A stretch of 9,233 nucleotides of DNA from a virus. Lineage: Duplodnaviria > Heunggongvirae > Uroviricota > Caudoviricetes. The stretch is taken from IMG/VR virus record IMGVR_UViG_2630968558_000007, positions 1-9,233 of that record, one strand, 5' to 3'. The notes below the pieces were generated by a model. That model was given only the letters and a program-made list of their open reading frames with translations, did not search any database and was not told the DNA's origin. Below, one piece after another: positions 3,260-9,218 of this stretch; position 1 is the first letter of the stretch, and the number at the start of each line of letters is the position of its first letter. The translations under genes and the position numbers were made by a program.

Positions 3260-4150
3260 ATGTCAAGCTTAGCAAAGTCAACTGTAAATTGCACTAATAG
3301 CATCATCATTTCTGACGTCAAGATTCATATGGATTCAGAGGGGCGTTACTCGCTTAATGACCTTCATGTAGCGTCTGGGAAGGAGGAAAAACATCAGCCA
3401 GCTTTCTTCATGCGTAGAAATGAAACTATTGAATTGATTAATGAAATTTTTAATTCTGCGGATATGCAGAATAAGAATCCCGTCCTTTCTAAGAAAGGTC
3501 GATATGGTGGAACCTACGTGTGCAAGGAGCTTGTTTACTCCTACGCCATGTGGATTAGTGCATCCTTTGCGCTGAAGGTTATCCGTGCATATGACGCAAT
3601 GGTTACTGCCACACAAGATAGGAAGGCTATTGGAGGTAAAACTTCAGTAGCTGAACGCACACCGCTACGAGATGCAGTAAACATGCTGGTAGGAAAGAAA
3701 GGACTTCGCTATGACGATGCATACAATATGGTTCATCAGCGTTTTGGTATTGACAGCATTGATGAACTTTCAATTGAACAAATCCCGCAAGCTGTAGAGT
3801 ACATCCACAGGGTGGTGCTTGAAGGTGAGTTCATCGGCAAACAAGAGAGGAAAGTCAACGAGCTTTCTGCAAAAGAAGCAAACAGCCTTGTATGGTTATG
3901 GGATTATGCCAACCGCTCACAGGCATTATTCCGCAAACTGTATCCGGCGCTGAAACAAATTCAATCGAACTATTCCGGCAGATGCTACGACTATGGTCAT
4001 GAGTTCTCGTATGTTATCGGAATGGCAAGAGACGTTTTAATAAACCACACACGAGATGTTGATATCAATGAGCCAGACGGACCAACGAATCTTTCCGCAT
4101 GGATGAGACTTAAGAATAAAGAATTACCTCCTTCAGTACATAACTACTGA
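3260..4150 (+). CDS. ant: antirepressor-like protein with N-terminal KilA-N domain (Ant position of immI)
   Basis: Position after arc as in P22. KilA-N-type motifs [13 protein letters not shown] and [25 protein letters not shown]. Preferred start is ATG 3260 (SD GAGGT at 3246-3250), giving 297 aa; the track ORF begins at TTG 3194, 2 nt after the arc stop and with no SD. Confidence 0.65.
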
Positions 4151-4169
4151 CAGATAACCAACGCAACGA

Positions 4170-4192
4170 CCCAGCTTCGGCTGGGTTTTTTT
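4170..4192 (+). terminator. Rho-independent terminator after ant (stem CCCAGC / GCTGGG, loop TTCG, then a 7-T run)
   Basis: Perfect 6-bp GC-rich stem at 4170-4175 and 4180-4185 with a 4-nt loop, followed directly by T7 at 4186-4192, about 20 nt after the ant stop. Confidence 0.7.
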
Positions 4193-4250
4193 ATGCCCAA
4201 AATTCACCGTAGCCATGCTGCGGCGATTCCTTGTATCTGGAGCAAATTAA

Positions 4251-6173
4251 ATGACAGACATTACAGCCAATGTGATTGTATCGATGCCTTCGCAACTCTT
4301 CACTATGGCACGTTCTTTTAAAGCCGTAGCCAATGGCAAAATTTATATAGGAAAAATTGACACTGACCCGGTAAATCCTGAAAACCAGATTCAGGTTTAT
4401 GTGGAGAATGAGGATGGTTCTCACGTTCCTGTTTCACAACCAATCATCATTAACGCTGCTGGATATCCGGTATATAACGGACAGATTGCCAAGTTCGTAA
4501 CTGTGCAAGGCCACTCTATGGCTGTTTATGATGCATATGGTGCGCAGCAGTTCTATTTTCCTAATGTGCTGAAGTACGACCCGGATCAGTTAAGGCAGCA
4601 GATTGAAGACCCTGATGGGGCAACCAAATATCCCGCATTGCAGATTTCTCGCTGGCGTGATGATTTAGACGTGCGTGGATGGGGAGTATTCCCGGATGGT
4701 ACAGATGTTACTGCTAAACTGTGTGAGGCATTGGATTATGCTAACGGTGATTATTCACAATTAGTTGAGTATGGGAAAAACAGAAAATCATTGCATATCC
4801 CTCCAGGCGATTATGTCGTTGATATGACCAAGCTGACTGGCATTCATGCTTCTGCTGGTCGCTTTGTGATCCGCTGTAACGTTGATTGTGTTGGCCGAAT
4901 CCCTAACGGGGATTTCCTAATCCTTCATAGTAAATCTATAAATGTAACTGGCCTTTCATGTAAATCGTTATACATTAGAGGGCTACAGTTTTCTATTATC
5001 TCGAACATTGATACGACCGGCGATATAAGATTTTTTTCATCAGACGCATACACTCTGCCTGGGTTGGTTGTATGGGGTGGCGGGAGTTATTGGAATCATT
5101 TTGTACGCATCAAAACAGGTACTGCGGCAGGTGGTGGCAGATTCATAATTGACATCTCTGATGGATCTATAAATCAAAATACATTTGAGCAGCTTTGCGG
5201 TGGTGGTCTGATCATAACTGGATCAGGTTTTAGTCGCCAGACCGGTGCTCCGTATGAGGGGAACGCAAACACATTTATAGGTCTTGACACATCGGGAAGC
5301 GGCGATTATTTGCTCTATAACAATAGCACCCCAAATCAGCATAATGTTGTGATAGGTTTGTATGGCGAGGTTACGGGCAATGGGAAAATACGTGGGCCGT
5401 GGACCATACTTGGCGCGCGTGCGCAATTTGGGGGCTGGGCCTCAACCATGAGCCCCATGAATACCATATTAGGGACAGACCCTACAGCAGGCTCACAGGG
5501 AGGAGAGACGTTCAGTGTCTCCGGTTCTAATCTTTGCCCTTCTGGAGATTGGTCGGTTATTGAAGGAGTCTACGGAGCACCGATTGACTTTTCCCTTTTA
5601 ACTATACCGAACGAACGAAAGGTTGGTTCTGACCCTAATGAACCATCTGGCTGCGGTAGATGGTTTGGAGTCACTAACGCATCTCAACGTTGCAGAATAA
5701 CCCTAAATTTAACTAAAACACAGTCAGGTTTCATTCGTGGAGCTTTTTACTTTAAAGGCGACACACCGCTTGAGATAGCTATAGAAGCTCAAGATGGTAC
5801 TAATACCATCTATATGCCAGTTAATATGTTCTACGATATGGGTGTTGGAGGGTGGAAGTTATACAAAGTTTCAGCGCCAACCAACGACAAAAGTAAAGCA
5901 TACAGATTAAGGATTACAGTTGAATCCGGAATGAGCGCTTATGTTGGAGGAGCGTATTTTAGCCAGTATAACGGAACCTTTCTTCCAGTATTCTGCGGAT
6001 GGGAGAAAGTAAAAATGAGATCTAGCGTAAAGCCTACTGTGACAGAGAACACAGGTTCTTTCCCAATCGGCTTGGTGTCCTACAGAACATCTCCAGCAAC
6101 ATATCCTTCCGACCCTACTGTCCAATGGGTGTGGAATGGAAGTACATGGGGGATTGTGAATATTTCTGCCTAA
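4251..6173 (+). CDS. tailspike protein (P22 gp9 / Sf6-type head-binding domain fused to a divergent receptor-binding domain)
   Basis: First ~113 aa ([50 protein letters not shown]…NVLKYDPDQ) are near-identical to the Sf6/HK620/P22 tailspike head-binding domain as recalled. The remaining ~525 aa are Gly/Ser/Thr/Asn-rich and consistent with a beta-helix receptor-binding domain. SD GGAG at 4239-4242. Confidence 0.9.
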
Positions 6174-6178
6174 CCAAT

Positions 6179-6203
6179 AGCGGCATGCTTCAAACATGCC
6201 GCT
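6179..6203. terminator. hairpin between convergent tailspike and acyltransferase genes (possible bidirectional terminator)
   Basis: Perfect 9-bp stem AGCGGCATG / CATGCCGCT with a 7-nt loop, 6 nt after the tailspike stop and just before the acyltransferase stop. No strong U-tract on either strand, so terminator function is uncertain. Confidence 0.35.
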
Positions 6204-6209
6204 TCAAAA

Positions 6210-7307
6210 TTATCTTGGAATATTTTTCTCGATATATTTATAGCTTAGTAGTGCAAAAGCTACAGATGTTATAAATACAATAAAAATAAACGAGAAGCTT
6301 TTTGATAAATCAGCCATCCCAAGCCAATCTATCATCTTAAAGCATAATATAAACGTAATTGGATGAACTAAATACAAAGAGTATGAAGCATCACCAATCA
6401 TGATGAAAATACGTGGTATTTTGATGTTGTCTTGTATGTAGTCAGAGCATGCAGTAAAGCATGCAAACATTATGCAAAAATATTTCCCTGAATGAAAAAT
6501 CCCATGCCCAGCATCAAACTGTGTTATGTAAGCCCATACAGGGATTATGATTCCAATCGAAATTAATGGTATTGCAATCCTTTTGTCTCTAATTGAAAAG
6601 TTACCACTTTTGTATAGGATAGCAATAATCGCACCGAAGACAAACTCCCAAATCAGGCTTTGCATGGTTAAATTTATATATCCTAAACCTTCAATTTTTG
6701 GTCTGTCGAATACACCCGCAATAGATGGCAAAGCTAACAGTGTAATGAAAAACCATAATATATAAAATGTATACCTAAACTTCCCCAGCGCTATTCCAAT
6801 GGCGCAAACTAAATAAAAATATATTTCATAATTGAGGGTCCATCCAACGAACAATGATGGAGGCCCAAAGTATATAGGTGACTCAGTGTTTAGTGGAATG
6901 AAAAGCAAACCTTTGATTATGTTTGTTAATTCAAATGAGCTAGATGATTGGTTATATGAAAACCCATGCATTAAAGATAAATCAACATTTTTAACAATGA
7001 CTATATATGCAATAGTCATGATGAAATATAGAGGCCAAACTCTTAAGAAACGTTTTTTAATAAACTTTATCAAATCATTGCTTTGGTAGCTATGAGACGT
7101 ATAAATTATGATAAAACCACTAATGATGAAAAATAAATCAACTCCGAATGCACCAGGCCAAAATAATCGCTGAGCCAGCCATTCATATTCTGTTCCTTTC
7201 AAAAAATCCCTTGCATGGCAAAGTACGACAAGCATAGCTGCAATAGCCCTAAGCGCCTGTATATACTGAAGGTTATTCTTTCTTGGTGGACTGTTATCGA
7301 TTTCCAA
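6210..7307 (-). CDS. acyltransferase-3 family integral membrane protein (O-antigen acetyltransferase, Oac-like serotype-conversion candidate)
   Basis: 365-aa polytopic hydrophobic protein with acyltransferase-3 signatures: N-terminal LRAIAAMLVVLCH, FGVDLFFIISGF, C-terminal SYSLYLVHP. Sits between tailspike and integrase where Sf6 carries oac. Visibly AT-rich. Apparent TTG start at 7307 with AGGTG 4 nt upstream. Confidence 0.8.
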   Translation of the reverse strand: MEIDNSPPRKNNLQYIQALRAIAAMLVVLCHARDFLKGTEYEWLAQRLFWPGAFGVDLFFIISGFIIIYTSHSYQSNDLIKFIKKRFLRVWPLYFIMTIAYIVIVKNVDLSLMHGFSYNQSSSSFELTNIIKGLLFIPLNTESPIYFGPPSLFVGWTLNYEIYFYLVCAIGIALGKFRYTFYILWFFITLLALPSIAGVFDRPKIEGLGYINLTMQSLIWEFVFGAIIAILYKSGNFSIRDKRIAIPLISIGIIIPVWAYITQFDAGHGIFHSGKYFCIMFACFTACSDYIQDNIKIPRIFIMIGDASYSLYLVHPITFILCFKMIDWLGMADLSKSFSFIFIVFITSVAFALLSYKYIEKNIPR

Positions 7308-7405
7308 AATACACCTATAATAGTTTTTTGATAAGTATCAGTAGCTTCTGAAAGGTCTGAAGTTTAGCACCACAAACGCTATTGATCGACACCGCCGATC
7401 AGTAA

Positions 7406-7425
7406 TACTGTATTAATATACAGTA
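7406..7425. promoter_or_regulatory. LexA (SOS) box TACTGTATTAATATACAGTA
   Basis: Perfect 20-bp palindrome fitting the E. coli LexA consensus CTGT-N8-ACAG; 17 nt upstream of the umuD'-like start codon, with SD GGAGGTGA at 7432-7439. Confidence 0.8.
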
Positions 7426-7442
7426 TCCATCGGAGGTGAGTT

Positions 7443-7829
7443 ATGGGATTCCCGAGTCCAGCACAAGACTACGTTGAAGAGCGCATATCGCTCGACAAGT
7501 GCATCATAAGCAGGCCAGCGGCAACGTACTTCATGCGAGCGGGTGCGACGCACTACCGGGAAGGTATCCTGAATGGCGCGCTGCTGGTTGTGGATGCTTC
7601 GCTATCACCATGCGACGGCTCATTACTTGTTTGCAGAATGGAAGGTGAGCTGAGGATTAAGCGATACCGCAAATCACCCAAGGTTCACCTGGAAGATTTG
7701 CAGACAGGAAGAAGGGAGGCTATACCTCTGCACGATGACGGAACGAGCCCTGATGCGATATTTGGCGTAATCACCTACATCATCAACGATGCGCGGACGG
7801 GTGAGTTTGATGATTGCCCGGTGATGTGA
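7443..7829 (+). CDS. UmuD'-like protein (S24 LexA/UmuD-family C-terminal domain, N-terminally pre-truncated, predicted non-catalytic)
   Basis: 128 aa. MGFPSPAQDYVEERISLD…ATYF… aligns with E. coli UmuD from Gly25 onward (UmuD: C|GFPSPAADYVEQRIDLN…SATYF). The UmuD GDSM catalytic-Ser motif is replaced by ATHY; the Lys-containing region is retained (ELRIKRY vs EFTVKKL). Strong SD, LexA box upstream, no umuC-like gene in the window. Confidence 0.8.
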   Translation: MGFPSPAQDYVEERISLDKCIISRPAATYFMRAGATHYREGILNGALLVVDASLSPCDGSLLVCRMEGELRIKRYRKSPKVHLEDLQTGRREAIPLHDDGTSPDAIFGVITYIINDARTGEFDDCPVM

Positions 7830-7899
7830 GACAGAAATGAGACACAAAAAGCTTTGCACTGAATTGCAAGGCTTAGTGCTGTCAGAGATATAGCGTTGG

Positions 7900-9057
7900 T
7901 TAGCCCACCTTTTCATCAAGCCAATCCGCCCACCACTGCATCATCTCCCTGCGCTTATCGAGATACTGAGCATGGTTGTAAATTCCACGCACAGATCCGC
8001 CATTGGCATGTGCCAGTTGCACTTCAATAGCATCAGCAGGCCATTCGTGCTCGTTCATAATCGTACTGAATTCATGCCTGAATCCGTGACCGCTTTCCAG
8101 ACCCTCATAGCCGATTTGTTTGATCACAAGTAATACCGCGTTCTCGCAGATTGGCTTCTTCTTATCATTACGCCCGGCAAAAACAAACTCTGATACTGGT
8201 TTGGTGATGGAGCTTAACGTAGTGAGAAGTTCAACCACTTGGTCCGACATCGGGACCACATGAATCTTGCGTCCCTTCATCACACTGGCGTCGATAGTGA
8301 TAATCCTGTTTTCAAAATCGACGTTCTTCCATAGCATAGAACGAAGCTCTTTCGTTCTTAGGGCTGTGTAGCGTAAAACTTTGGTCGCAATGAGCGATAC
8401 GATACTTCCTGAAAATGTTGCCAGTGCTTTGTTGAATGTCGGGATCTGGTCTGCAGGAAGAAACGGGAAGTTCTTCTTGCGGTATCCCTTCATGGCGTCA
8501 GCAAGATCAGGTGCCGGGTTATATTTAGCCCTTCCGGTGACAATAGCGTAACGGAAAACCTCGCCGCATCTTCTGCGTGCTTTGTTGGCTCGTTCCATTG
8601 CACCGCGATCTTCAAACCTGCGGATTACTTCAAGAAGTTGCATCGGCTCAATATCCTGAATTTCAAGACCGCCGATGATGGGTAAAATGTCGTCATCAAA
8701 CATTTTGGCAAGTTCAGTCGTATACCCTACAGACCAGACTTGCTTCTTGTGCTCGTACCATTCCTTGTAAATGGCGCTAAAGGAATTGTTGTTAGACGAA
8801 GCCTTTTTCGCCTTTACCGGATCGATGCCAACCGAGATGTCTTTCCTCGCAGTCCATGCTTTATCCCTTGCCTCTTGCAAAGTCATAAGCGGATATTTTC
8901 CGACGGTCAGGATTTTCTCCTTACCGTCAATCTTGTAGCGAAGCTGCCATACCTTTTTCCCTGACACAGGGACATAAAGGTACAGGCCATTACCATCGAG
9001 AAGGCGGTATGGTTTTTCTTTCGGCTTTGCTGCTTCAATCTGCTTAACGGTGAGCAT
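7900..9057 (-). CDS. int: P4-type tyrosine integrase (IntS-like, tRNA-Arg-associated)
   Basis: Product from ATG 9057 is 385 aa, MLTVKQIEAAKPKEKPYRLLDGNGLYLYVPVSGKKVWQLRY… (P4-type N-terminal arm-binding domain), with C-terminal catalytic motifs HGFRHEF and RGIYNHAQY. The track ORF extends to GTG 9093, a less likely start. Adjacent to a tRNA-Arg 3' end, like E. coli K-12 intS next to argW. Confidence 0.9.
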   Translation of the reverse strand: MLTVKQIEAAKPKEKPYRLLDGNGLYLYVPVSGKKVWQLRYKIDGKEKILTVGKYPLMTLQEARDKAWTARKDISVGIDPVKAKKASSNNNSFSAIYKEWYEHKKQVWSVGYTTELAKMFDDDILPIIGGLEIQDIEPMQLLEVIRRFEDRGAMERANKARRRCGEVFRYAIVTGRAKYNPAPDLADAMKGYRKKNFPFLPADQIPTFNKALATFSGSIVSLIATKVLRYTALRTKELRSMLWKNVDFENRIITIDASVMKGRKIHVVPMSDQVVELLTTLSSITKPVSEFVFAGRNDKKKPICENAVLLVIKQIGYEGLESGHGFRHEFSTIMNEHEWPADAIEVQLAHANGGSVRGIYNHAQYLDKRREMMQWWADWLDEKVG

Positions 9058-9218
9058 GGGTAAAAATCCGGTGGGTAAAATTATTTTATCCACTTTTTAC
9101 CCGTCATGGAGTGCGGCTGTCAACGATCTGACGCGAACCATTACGAACTGTGAATCTACGGAAGGCTTGATATTCAGGGGATTTTGCGGACTGGTACGGA
9201 TGGGAGCGAACTGATAAA

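Follow-up and report, generated by a model that had tools for sequence, protein, structure and literature searches.

Exchange of a tailspike receptor-binding domain together with a neighbouring acyltransferase gene in a P22-like prophage of Escherichia marmotae, with a predicted O38 target

What does the tailspike encoded in the virus record IMGVR_UViG_2630968558_000007 recognise, and how much of the surrounding DNA was exchanged together with its receptor-binding domain? The stretch that we analysed, here called the window, comprises 9,233 nucleotides (nt); it is contig JNBP01000177.1, the right arm of a P22-like prophage, and the same tailspike gene occurs in chromosome CP025979 (GCA_002900365.1) of Escherichia marmotae HT073016. 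A sequence-only reading of the window had described the tailspike as a mosaic, with a conserved head-binding domain joined to a divergent receptor-binding domain for a different O-antigen or capsule. On balance, we think it probable that the protein is a depolymerase specific for the Escherichia coli O38/Shigella dysenteriae type 8 (SD8) O-antigen, paired with a seroconverting O-acetyltransferase encoded by the adjacent gene; the specificity, the cleavage and the acyltransferase substrate are predictions. The parts of the gene that bear on its origin are as follows.

4251–6173, + strand: tailspike open reading frame (ORF), 640 amino acids, ATG start
4251–4589, + strand: residues 1–113, P22-type head-binding (tail-attachment) domain, Pfam PF09008
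4590–4694, + strand: residues 114–148, conserved linker or neck, a likely recombination hotspot (tblastn, phrog_16355 and DNA alignment)

The first 113 residues match the Pfam Head_binding family PF09008 along the entire model (positions 1–113 of 113, E 6.5e-67). They are 100% identical to those of phage 611R6, 99% to those of CUS-3 and N7, 92% to those of Sf6 and 76% to those of P22, and HK620 DNA is 90.5% identical across nt 1–345 of the tailspike gene. The earlier description of this domain as almost identical to its counterparts in Sf6, HK620 and P22 is accurate for the first two, and for CUS-3 as well, and somewhat generous for P22. Their expected role is to attach the spike, presumably a trimer, to the phage tail.

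Similarity to Sf6, HK620 and P22 ends after the motif YDPDQ, at position 4589/4590 (Q113 is encoded by nt 4587–4589 and L114 by nt 4590–4592), which is where the sequence-only reading had placed the junction (NVLKYDPDQ, around nt 4590). That reading had also seen no resemblance to the P22 or Sf6 receptor-binding domains beyond this point. Consistent with this, sequence matches in the PDB to Sf6 gp14 (7sg7) and P22 gp9 (2vky, 2xc1 and 1lkt) were confined to residues 1–117, neither phmmer nor profile searches of the PDB detected homology between the residues after 113 and Sf6 gp14, HK620 gp9 or P22 gp9, and blastn matches to Sf6/HK620/P22-type tailspike genes stopped at nt 4591–4595. We searched 50,697 phage records and 5,426 complete E. 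coli genomes by megablast: matches in 28 phage and 1,129 E. coli records all ended within nt 215–436 of the gene, and the whole tailspike gene was present in none of the phage records and none of the genomes. We conclude that the domain boundary after residue 113 is real, far beyond chance.

The exchange itself can be read from the other side of the junction. Residues 114–640 are 96% identical to residues 126–652 of a tailspike from Enterobacter hormaechei (P0001), the N-terminus of which is an unrelated anchor, PF18668; the alignment to the window protein starts exactly at L114 and runs to the end. The domain swap proposed from the sequence is thus directly shown. The first stretch after the junction is a linker with the consensus LRxQIxDPDGAxKYPxLQxxRWRDDxDVRGWG, predicted to be helical, which matches phrog_16355 and residues 213–263 of 9vvr_A. 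In a DNA alignment it is common to the window, CUS-3, E. hormaechei and phage CBA6, and Sf6 departs right after GATCAGTT. A further 113 phage records, including the CUS-3 endosialidase, K5 lyase phages, Gally and Kuttervirus-like phages, match only this stretch (tblastn), the bodies of these tailspikes being otherwise unrelated. We rejected an endosialidase or K5-lyase-like spike, with which only the linker (residues 114 to about 165) is shared; the Peptidase_S74 C-terminal chaperone domain (PF13884) of such spikes was not found by Pfam in the window protein. Within the family there is evidence for a further breakpoint: an E. coli homologue (P0017) is 100% identical through residue ~195–210 and only 35–60% identical thereafter. 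We conclude that a second, inner junction lies near residues 210–240 and that the gene is at least three-part, with an anchor, a linker plus the first helix coils, and a specificity-bearing part (residues ~225–640).

The receptor-binding part belongs to a family with no Pfam model, structure or substrate on record. We found about 50 clusters of proteins homologous to residues 114–640, at 42–96% identity, from Enterobacter hormaechei/cloacae, E. coli, Citrobacter and Morganella; none carries a functional name. Among 35 homologues scanned for anchors, 19 have PF18668 (TSP1/Gp66-type), 10 have PF09008 and three have PF03906 (T7-type). Among sequenced phages, a full-length relative is found only in the Kuttervirus CBA6 (KM389302; P0040, unannotated, 50% identity), and the one paper that mentions CBA6 gives no specificity for its tailspike. 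An exhaustive HMMER search of 1.84 billion representative proteins with residues 225–640 returned 30 proteins at E<=1e-3 and four at E<=1e-30; judged by these searches, the family is small. Many E. coli assemblies hold a 96% copy of the tailspike, and members of the P0003 tailspike cluster occur in >100 Escherichia assemblies; the receptor-binding alignment returned no relative from the species-representative genomes. NCBIfam held nothing for this part, PHROGs matched the linker only, and searches of the PDB, run with the protein sequence alone and with two profiles, matched nothing further than the linker and the initial helix motif. For PF12708, the window protein gave no match even at E<=1; the gathering cut-off was passed by 5 of 35 close and 2 of 10 distant relatives (a third distant match was weak and sub-threshold), and the family profile reached PF12708-type solved structures solely through a degenerate N-terminal start motif. 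The predicted fold agrees with that family. We conclude that the relation to PF12708 is distant. Searched apart from residues 1–113, as the sequence-only reading had advised, residues 114–640 showed no near-identity to a well-characterised tailspike such as that of Sf6 or HK620, which by sequence comparison places the protein outside the Sf6, HK620 and P22 receptor-binding families.

We turn next to the predicted fold, for which the following bounds and candidate residues were obtained.

4695–5570, + strand: residues ~149–440, predicted right-handed parallel beta-helix, the presumed O-antigen binding and cleaving body (approximate, DSSP of the model)
5571–6020, + strand: residues ~441–590, predicted beta-sandwich resembling carbohydrate-binding modules (CBMs; Foldseek, DSSP strands 447–571, approximate bounds)
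6021–6173, + strand: residues ~591–640 and the stop codon, predicted small C-terminal beta domain (DSSP strands 609–612, 623–628 and 633–637, pLDDT 82–93)
5286–5288, + strand: codon of D346, candidate catalytic carboxylate, invariant in 35/35 close and 16/16 distant relatives
5367–5369, + strand: codon of E373, candidate catalytic carboxylate, E in 35/35 close relatives; among distant relatives, E in 14 and D in 2

An AlphaFold2 model of the monomer, built on 35 sequences, was confident over residues ~145–640 (per-residue confidence, pLDDT, mostly >90); the N-terminal score was low because most alignment rows carry another anchor. The beta-helix that had been anticipated was predicted with high confidence, and in Foldseek the fold matched phage depolymerases and tailspikes. 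The CBM-like stretch of ~150 residues, placed after the helix from the predicted secondary-structure pattern, matched CBM61 (2xon/2xom, TM score on target 0.55–0.60), CBM16 (2zey and 3oeb) and a hyaluronan-binding module (4d0q), with Foldseek E values of 2e-5 to 8e-4. In the C-terminal beta domain, P595, G607, R612 and W626 are conserved. A search of viral folds in BFVD returned no close relative, all matches being <=24% identical with low TM scores.

The sequence-only reading had advised looking for a catalytic Asp/Glu pair, and one candidate pair emerged from conservation across the close relatives and a distant set (n = 16, 22–59% identity). D346 lies at the end of predicted beta-strand 341–346, and E373 follows predicted strand 365–372, one helix rung (27 residues) further on, so that the two occupy adjacent rungs. 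The conservation suggests that D346 and E373 may be catalytic. The fold alone cannot separate a hydrolase from a lyase, and a protein of the same architecture and with the same O-antigen target could be a polysaccharide lyase acting by beta-elimination at a uronic acid. We consider this unlikely. The distant relatives keep two carboxylates, D346 and E/D373, a pattern that fits glycoside hydrolases better, but no Arg, Lys or His that could serve as base (H226, R390, R470 and R496 all vary), and we favour a hydrolase because of this difference. In addition, equally strong fold matches are hydrolases, such as phi29 gp12, the CBA120 tailspikes, GH28, GH110 and GH87. The deacetylase activity that had also been raised is unlikely for a beta-helix fold.

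How far does the exchanged DNA extend? Beyond the tailspike, three features of the window are needed.

4607–7424: 2.8-kb exchange cassette with the receptor-binding domain, the acyltransferase gene and the acyltransferase upstream region, 95.4% DNA identity to E. hormaechei
6210–7307, − strand: membrane acyltransferase (Acyl_transf_3), 365 amino acids, presumed O-antigen O-acetyltransferase, Pfam PF01757 (E 1.1e-28)
7443–7829, + strand: S24 peptidase (UmuD'/HumD-like) moron, 128 amino acids, Pfam PF00717

Positions 4607–7424 have 95.4% DNA identity to positions 10393–13210 of an E. hormaechei locus in CP135276 (L011), where long-tail genes, among them those for the tape-measure protein and the tail terminator, precede the block. 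Similarity of the window to Sf6, N7, 611R6 and CUS-3 ends at 4591–4633 and returns only at 7827–7907 (blastn). E. coli prophages located between sbcB and dacD carry window positions 3817–7829 at 98% identity. We conclude from these alignments that the swapped unit is larger than the sequence-only reading saw, and that it includes the downstream acyltransferase gene. The GC content of that gene is 32–35%, against 42–50% in its flanks (tailspike 42–50%, S24 gene ~50%), which indicates that the cassette itself was assembled from DNA of different origins. The S24/HumD-like gene, which belongs to the variable block of the Escherichia prophages, accompanies the cassette in three E. coli prophages (L010, L013 and L014) and in two prophage remnants (L001 and L012), and is absent from the Enterobacter locus.

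Some further observations concern these loci. The E. hormaechei locus (CP135276 2587289–2609247) has its PF18668-anchored tailspike gene directly after that of an 825-amino-acid distal tail protein, so that a temperate phage with a long tail here bears a spike anchor of the Kuttervirus type. PGAP names the S24 gene of E. coli 'HumD family translesion DNA polymerase'; there is no UmuC-like partner in the window. Three decayed E. coli prophages have kept this gene along with that of the acyltransferase, and Enterobacter relatives have a small ORF and a Y-family polymerase gene at this position.

The acyltransferase gene is convergent to the tailspike gene and lies between it and the integrase gene, a Sf6-like position; its PF01757 match spans residues 14–356. 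The same acyltransferase (98–100% amino acid identity) was present at 6 of 6 independent loci that have a receptor-binding domain of >=96% identity. At all 11 loci with relatives of 44–66% identity, the same position is taken by gtrA-gtrB-gtrC, with a variable GtrC. The lytic phage CBA6 has neither the acyltransferase nor gtrABC beside its tailspike gene. The association of the spike with an O-antigen-modification locus was seen on short- and long-tailed prophages, in all prophage relatives examined. In phages of Shigella and Salmonella, seroconversion through the O-antigen is brought about by gtrABC operons, which glucosylate it, and by acyltransferases of the Oac type. We rejected the acyltransferase as an orthologue of Sf6 Oac (22.6% identity); from the gene context, we infer that it acetylates the host O-antigen.

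Two decayed prophages at sbcB-dacD, in E. coli NCTC9038 (L001, 1793284–1798150) and E. coli ANT (L012, 4032175–4047272), have lost most or all of the tailspike gene to IS30/IS3 or IS1 insertion sequence (IS) elements. In both, the acyltransferase and HumD-like genes are intact, at 99.5–100% amino acid identity. Their integrity amid IS decay suggests that selection kept the conversion gene after the phage was lost.

The 36-nt gap between the convergent stop codons of the tailspike and acyltransferase genes contains one further feature, read by eye.

6179–6203: perfect 9-bp inverted repeat, AGCGGCATG / CATGCCGCT, with a 7-nt loop

A consensus terminator and promoter scan of the gap (6174–6209) found nothing meaningful; the terminator scan passed over the repeat because it has no T-run on either strand. 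A two-way transcription stop is a possible function of this repeat.

Which O-antigen is involved is indicated by the serogroup of the carriers. E. marmotae HT073016 has an O-antigen cluster that is 99.41% identical to that of E. coli O38 and 99.24% identical to that of S. dysenteriae type 8, and the strain agglutinates with SD8 antiserum (PMC6650469). In a table of 149 isolates with 24 O types, it is the sole isolate typed O38 (PMC11546641). The comparison with the host O-antigen cluster that the sequence-only reading had called for thus points to a rare cluster. Independently of this strain, the acyltransferase gene is present in only 3 of the 5,426 complete E. coli genomes, NCTC9038, ANT and DAM, each time in an IS-decayed prophage at sbcB-dacD; NCTC9038 retains the last 537 nt of the tailspike gene, and its wzy and wzx are annotated 'O38 family' by PGAP, whereas literature searches on this strain returned nothing. 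Only 13 of the 5,426 genomes have O38 wzy/wzx, and these 13 include each of the three acyltransferase carriers. For this overlap the chance value is 1e-8; treating the near-clones ANT and DAM as a single genome raises it to 5e-6.

Several points weigh against an O38/SD8-specific depolymerase. Only three genomes underlie the E. coli association, and two of these are nearly identical; the association may partly be linkage because sbcB-dacD lies ~25 kb from the O-antigen cluster, and linkage and clonality may both contribute. In HT073016 there is no such linkage between the O-antigen cluster and the prophage, which occupies the yfdC/mlaA/fadL site. Since the O-antigen of a lysogen is presumably modified, the host serogroup is indirect evidence of the receptor. 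Furthermore, a receptor-binding domain of 96% identity also occurs in Enterobacter hormaechei, and the window protein falls below the threshold of every Pfam beta-helix family.

The presence of this domain in two genera could be explained by a widely shared polymer, and the target might be a capsule (K antigen) or exopolysaccharide common to Escherichia and Enterobacter, in which case the acyltransferase would modify that polymer or be unrelated. The closest fold matches include the Klebsiella capsule depolymerases Depo32, K2-2 TSP and DpK2, and the label 'exopolysaccharide production protein' is given to homologues of the acyltransferase in phages. However, gtrABC or the acyltransferase gene is directly downstream in every prophage relative, all typeable Escherichia carriers are O38, and the gene lies where P22, Sf6 and HK620 encode their O-antigen-specific tailspikes. 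We regard a capsule target as rather improbable. Of the two targets that the sequence-only reading had named, the O-antigen is very probable, specifically that of O38/SD8, and the capsule is the less likely given the conversion loci and the host serogroup.

Least probable is that the spike only binds, is an esterase or deacetylase, or is a functionless relic of a defective prophage. IS elements have truncated or removed the tailspike gene in NCTC9038, ANT and DAM, but three independent records contain an undamaged ORF of 100% identity, a full P22-like virion module lies upstream, and a 96% copy exists in many E. coli assemblies. The invariant acidic pair argues for catalysis, and known tailspike esterases use SGNH-type folds and not a beta-helix body.

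The O38/SD8-specific depolymerase that we favour would work as follows. The beta-helix and CBM-like domain (residues ~149–640) would bind the O-antigen of the host, predicted to be the E. coli O38/S. dysenteriae type 8 O-polysaccharide, and most likely cleave it as an endoglycosidase, which would let the virion work down the lipopolysaccharide (LPS) layer to the outer membrane. In lysogens, the convergent acyltransferase would most likely O-acetylate the same O-antigen, and this seroconversion would block adsorption of sibling phages, the effect that Oac has for Sf6. Recombination in the conserved linker would transfer the receptor-binding domain and the acyltransferase jointly, within the 2.8-kb cassette, from one phage type or genus to another.

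A broader proposal can be made tentatively, as something we rate at rather less than an even chance: that a spike domain and an O-antigen-modifying gene together form one mobile 'recognise and then mask the receptor' cassette; that such cassettes are exchanged intact among P22-like short-tailed, long-tailed and possibly T7-like and Kuttervirus phages, in the genera Escherichia, Enterobacter, Citrobacter and Morganella, with each spike co-evolving with its own acetylase or GtrC; and that the downstream conversion gene predicts the glycan specificity of the spike, the family being a new glycanase clade with an O38/SD8-specific member.

The rest of the window, and the longer record of the prophage, agree with the placement of the gene in a temperate phage.

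82–1923: gp16-type ejection protein gene
7900–9093, − strand: Sf6-type tyrosine integrase, at the right end of the prophage (Pfam Phage_integrase and Arm-DNA-binding domain)

The order in the window is a gp16-type ejection protein, two small secreted-protein morons, mnt/arc, ant, the tailspike, the acyltransferase, the S24/HumD-like gene and the integrase. Placement of the tailspike gene after the ejection-protein gene and immI (mnt/arc/ant), and before the conversion and integration genes, follows the P22-like pattern. The flanks are 94–97% identical to CUS-3, N7, HK620-like and Sf6 phages, and the integrase DNA is 94–97% identical to the integrase regions of Sf6, N7 and 611R6 (blastn). In the longer record (L003), a complete P22-type virion module lies upstream of the window genes, with coat, gp4/gp10/gp26-type tail and ejection proteins, and in the E. 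marmotae chromosome the host genes yfdC, mlaA and fadL lie beyond the integrase gene. The tailspike is deposited, as an exact match, under WP_052463014.1, a 'phage head-binding domain-containing protein' of Escherichia marmotae; a gene specific to E. coli was rejected, the window being an E. marmotae contig. We conclude that a P22-like temperate podovirus of the Sf6/CUS-3 type is integrated in E. marmotae HT073016, and that the gene codes for its tailspike.

The two morons at the left of the window are a separate observation.

2353–2688, − strand: Rap1a-family protein, 111 amino acids, signal-like N-terminus, Pfam PF18602 (E 1.2e-14)
1948–2337, − strand: 129-amino-acid secreted-looking ORF beside the Rap1a gene, without a Pfam match

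Rap1a is a family of type VI secretion system (T6SS) immunity proteins, and the gene lies here as a moron, with the gp16-like ejection-protein gene on one side and mnt/arc on the other; it is also found in an E. coli prophage (L010), with another neighbour. A prophage-borne orphan T6SS immunity gene could shield lysogens from the effectors of neighbouring cells.

The serotype range of a phage is set by the receptor-binding domains of its tailspikes; such domains also find use in serotyping and as enzymes for the removal of surface polysaccharides. What is new here is a delimited receptor-binding family without functional annotation, a specific receptor prediction (O38/SD8, and likewise the LPS of E. 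marmotae HT073016), and the finding that a spike domain has crossed tail types and genera in a single block with an O-antigen-modifying gene. The sharing of this 95%-identical block of spike and acetylase sequence by a short-tailed Escherichia and a long-tailed Enterobacter prophage indicates that host-range and seroconversion functions move together, and the specificity of a spike could be predicted from the conversion genes beside it. Modular tailspike exchange at the boundary between head-binding and receptor-binding domains is a textbook phenomenon, and the current view of tailspike evolution is unchanged by our finding.

Among known systems, Sf6 gp14 with its oac gene offers the closest parallel in layout. 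The head-binding domains are 92% identical, and both phages have the order tailspike, convergent Acyl_transf_3 gene and integrase (96% DNA identity). The proposed logic would also be alike, by analogy, in combining an O-antigen-cleaving spike with an O-antigen acetylase for seroconversion. In contrast to Sf6, the window tailspike has no detectable sequence similarity after residue 113, the acyltransferase shares only 22.6% identity with Oac, an S24/HumD gene lies between acyltransferase and integrase, and the predicted target is O38/SD8, whereas that of Sf6 is the S. flexneri Y-type O-antigen.

Sf6 gp14 and P22 gp9 are endorhamnosidases, and HK620 gp9 is an endo-N-acetylglucosaminidase. The window protein resembles the gp9 proteins of P22 and HK620 in its PF09008 anchor followed by a parallel beta-helix domain, predicted in our case, and in its P22-like late or immI-adjacent position. 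Catalysis by the P22 and HK620 tailspikes uses Asp/Glu on neighbouring helix rungs, the pattern that we propose for D346 and E373. The receptor-binding domains are nevertheless unrelated in sequence, the P22 anchor is only 76% identical, and the window protein adds a predicted CBM-like beta-sandwich after the helix. The PF12708-type depolymerases (phi29 gp12, CBA120 TSP1-4, the Phi92 gp150 colanidase and the Klebsiella Depo32 and K2-2 TSP) are further removed: identity is 6–15%, and the sequence-level match ends at the first helix coils.

The true homologues of residues 114–640 are the tailspikes of CBA6 (50% identity) and of PF18668-anchored Enterobacter, Citrobacter and Morganella prophages (up to 96% in E. 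hormaechei), with which the invariant motif at 346 and E373 are common. They differ from the window protein in having a PF18668 or PF03906 anchor and other virion types, and the 44–66% prophage members are paired with gtrABC instead of an acyltransferase. By its anchor, genomic position and predicted beta-helix, the window protein is a member of the P22-like tailspike class, and by analogy with that class it would form a trimer and act as an O-antigen endoglycosidase.

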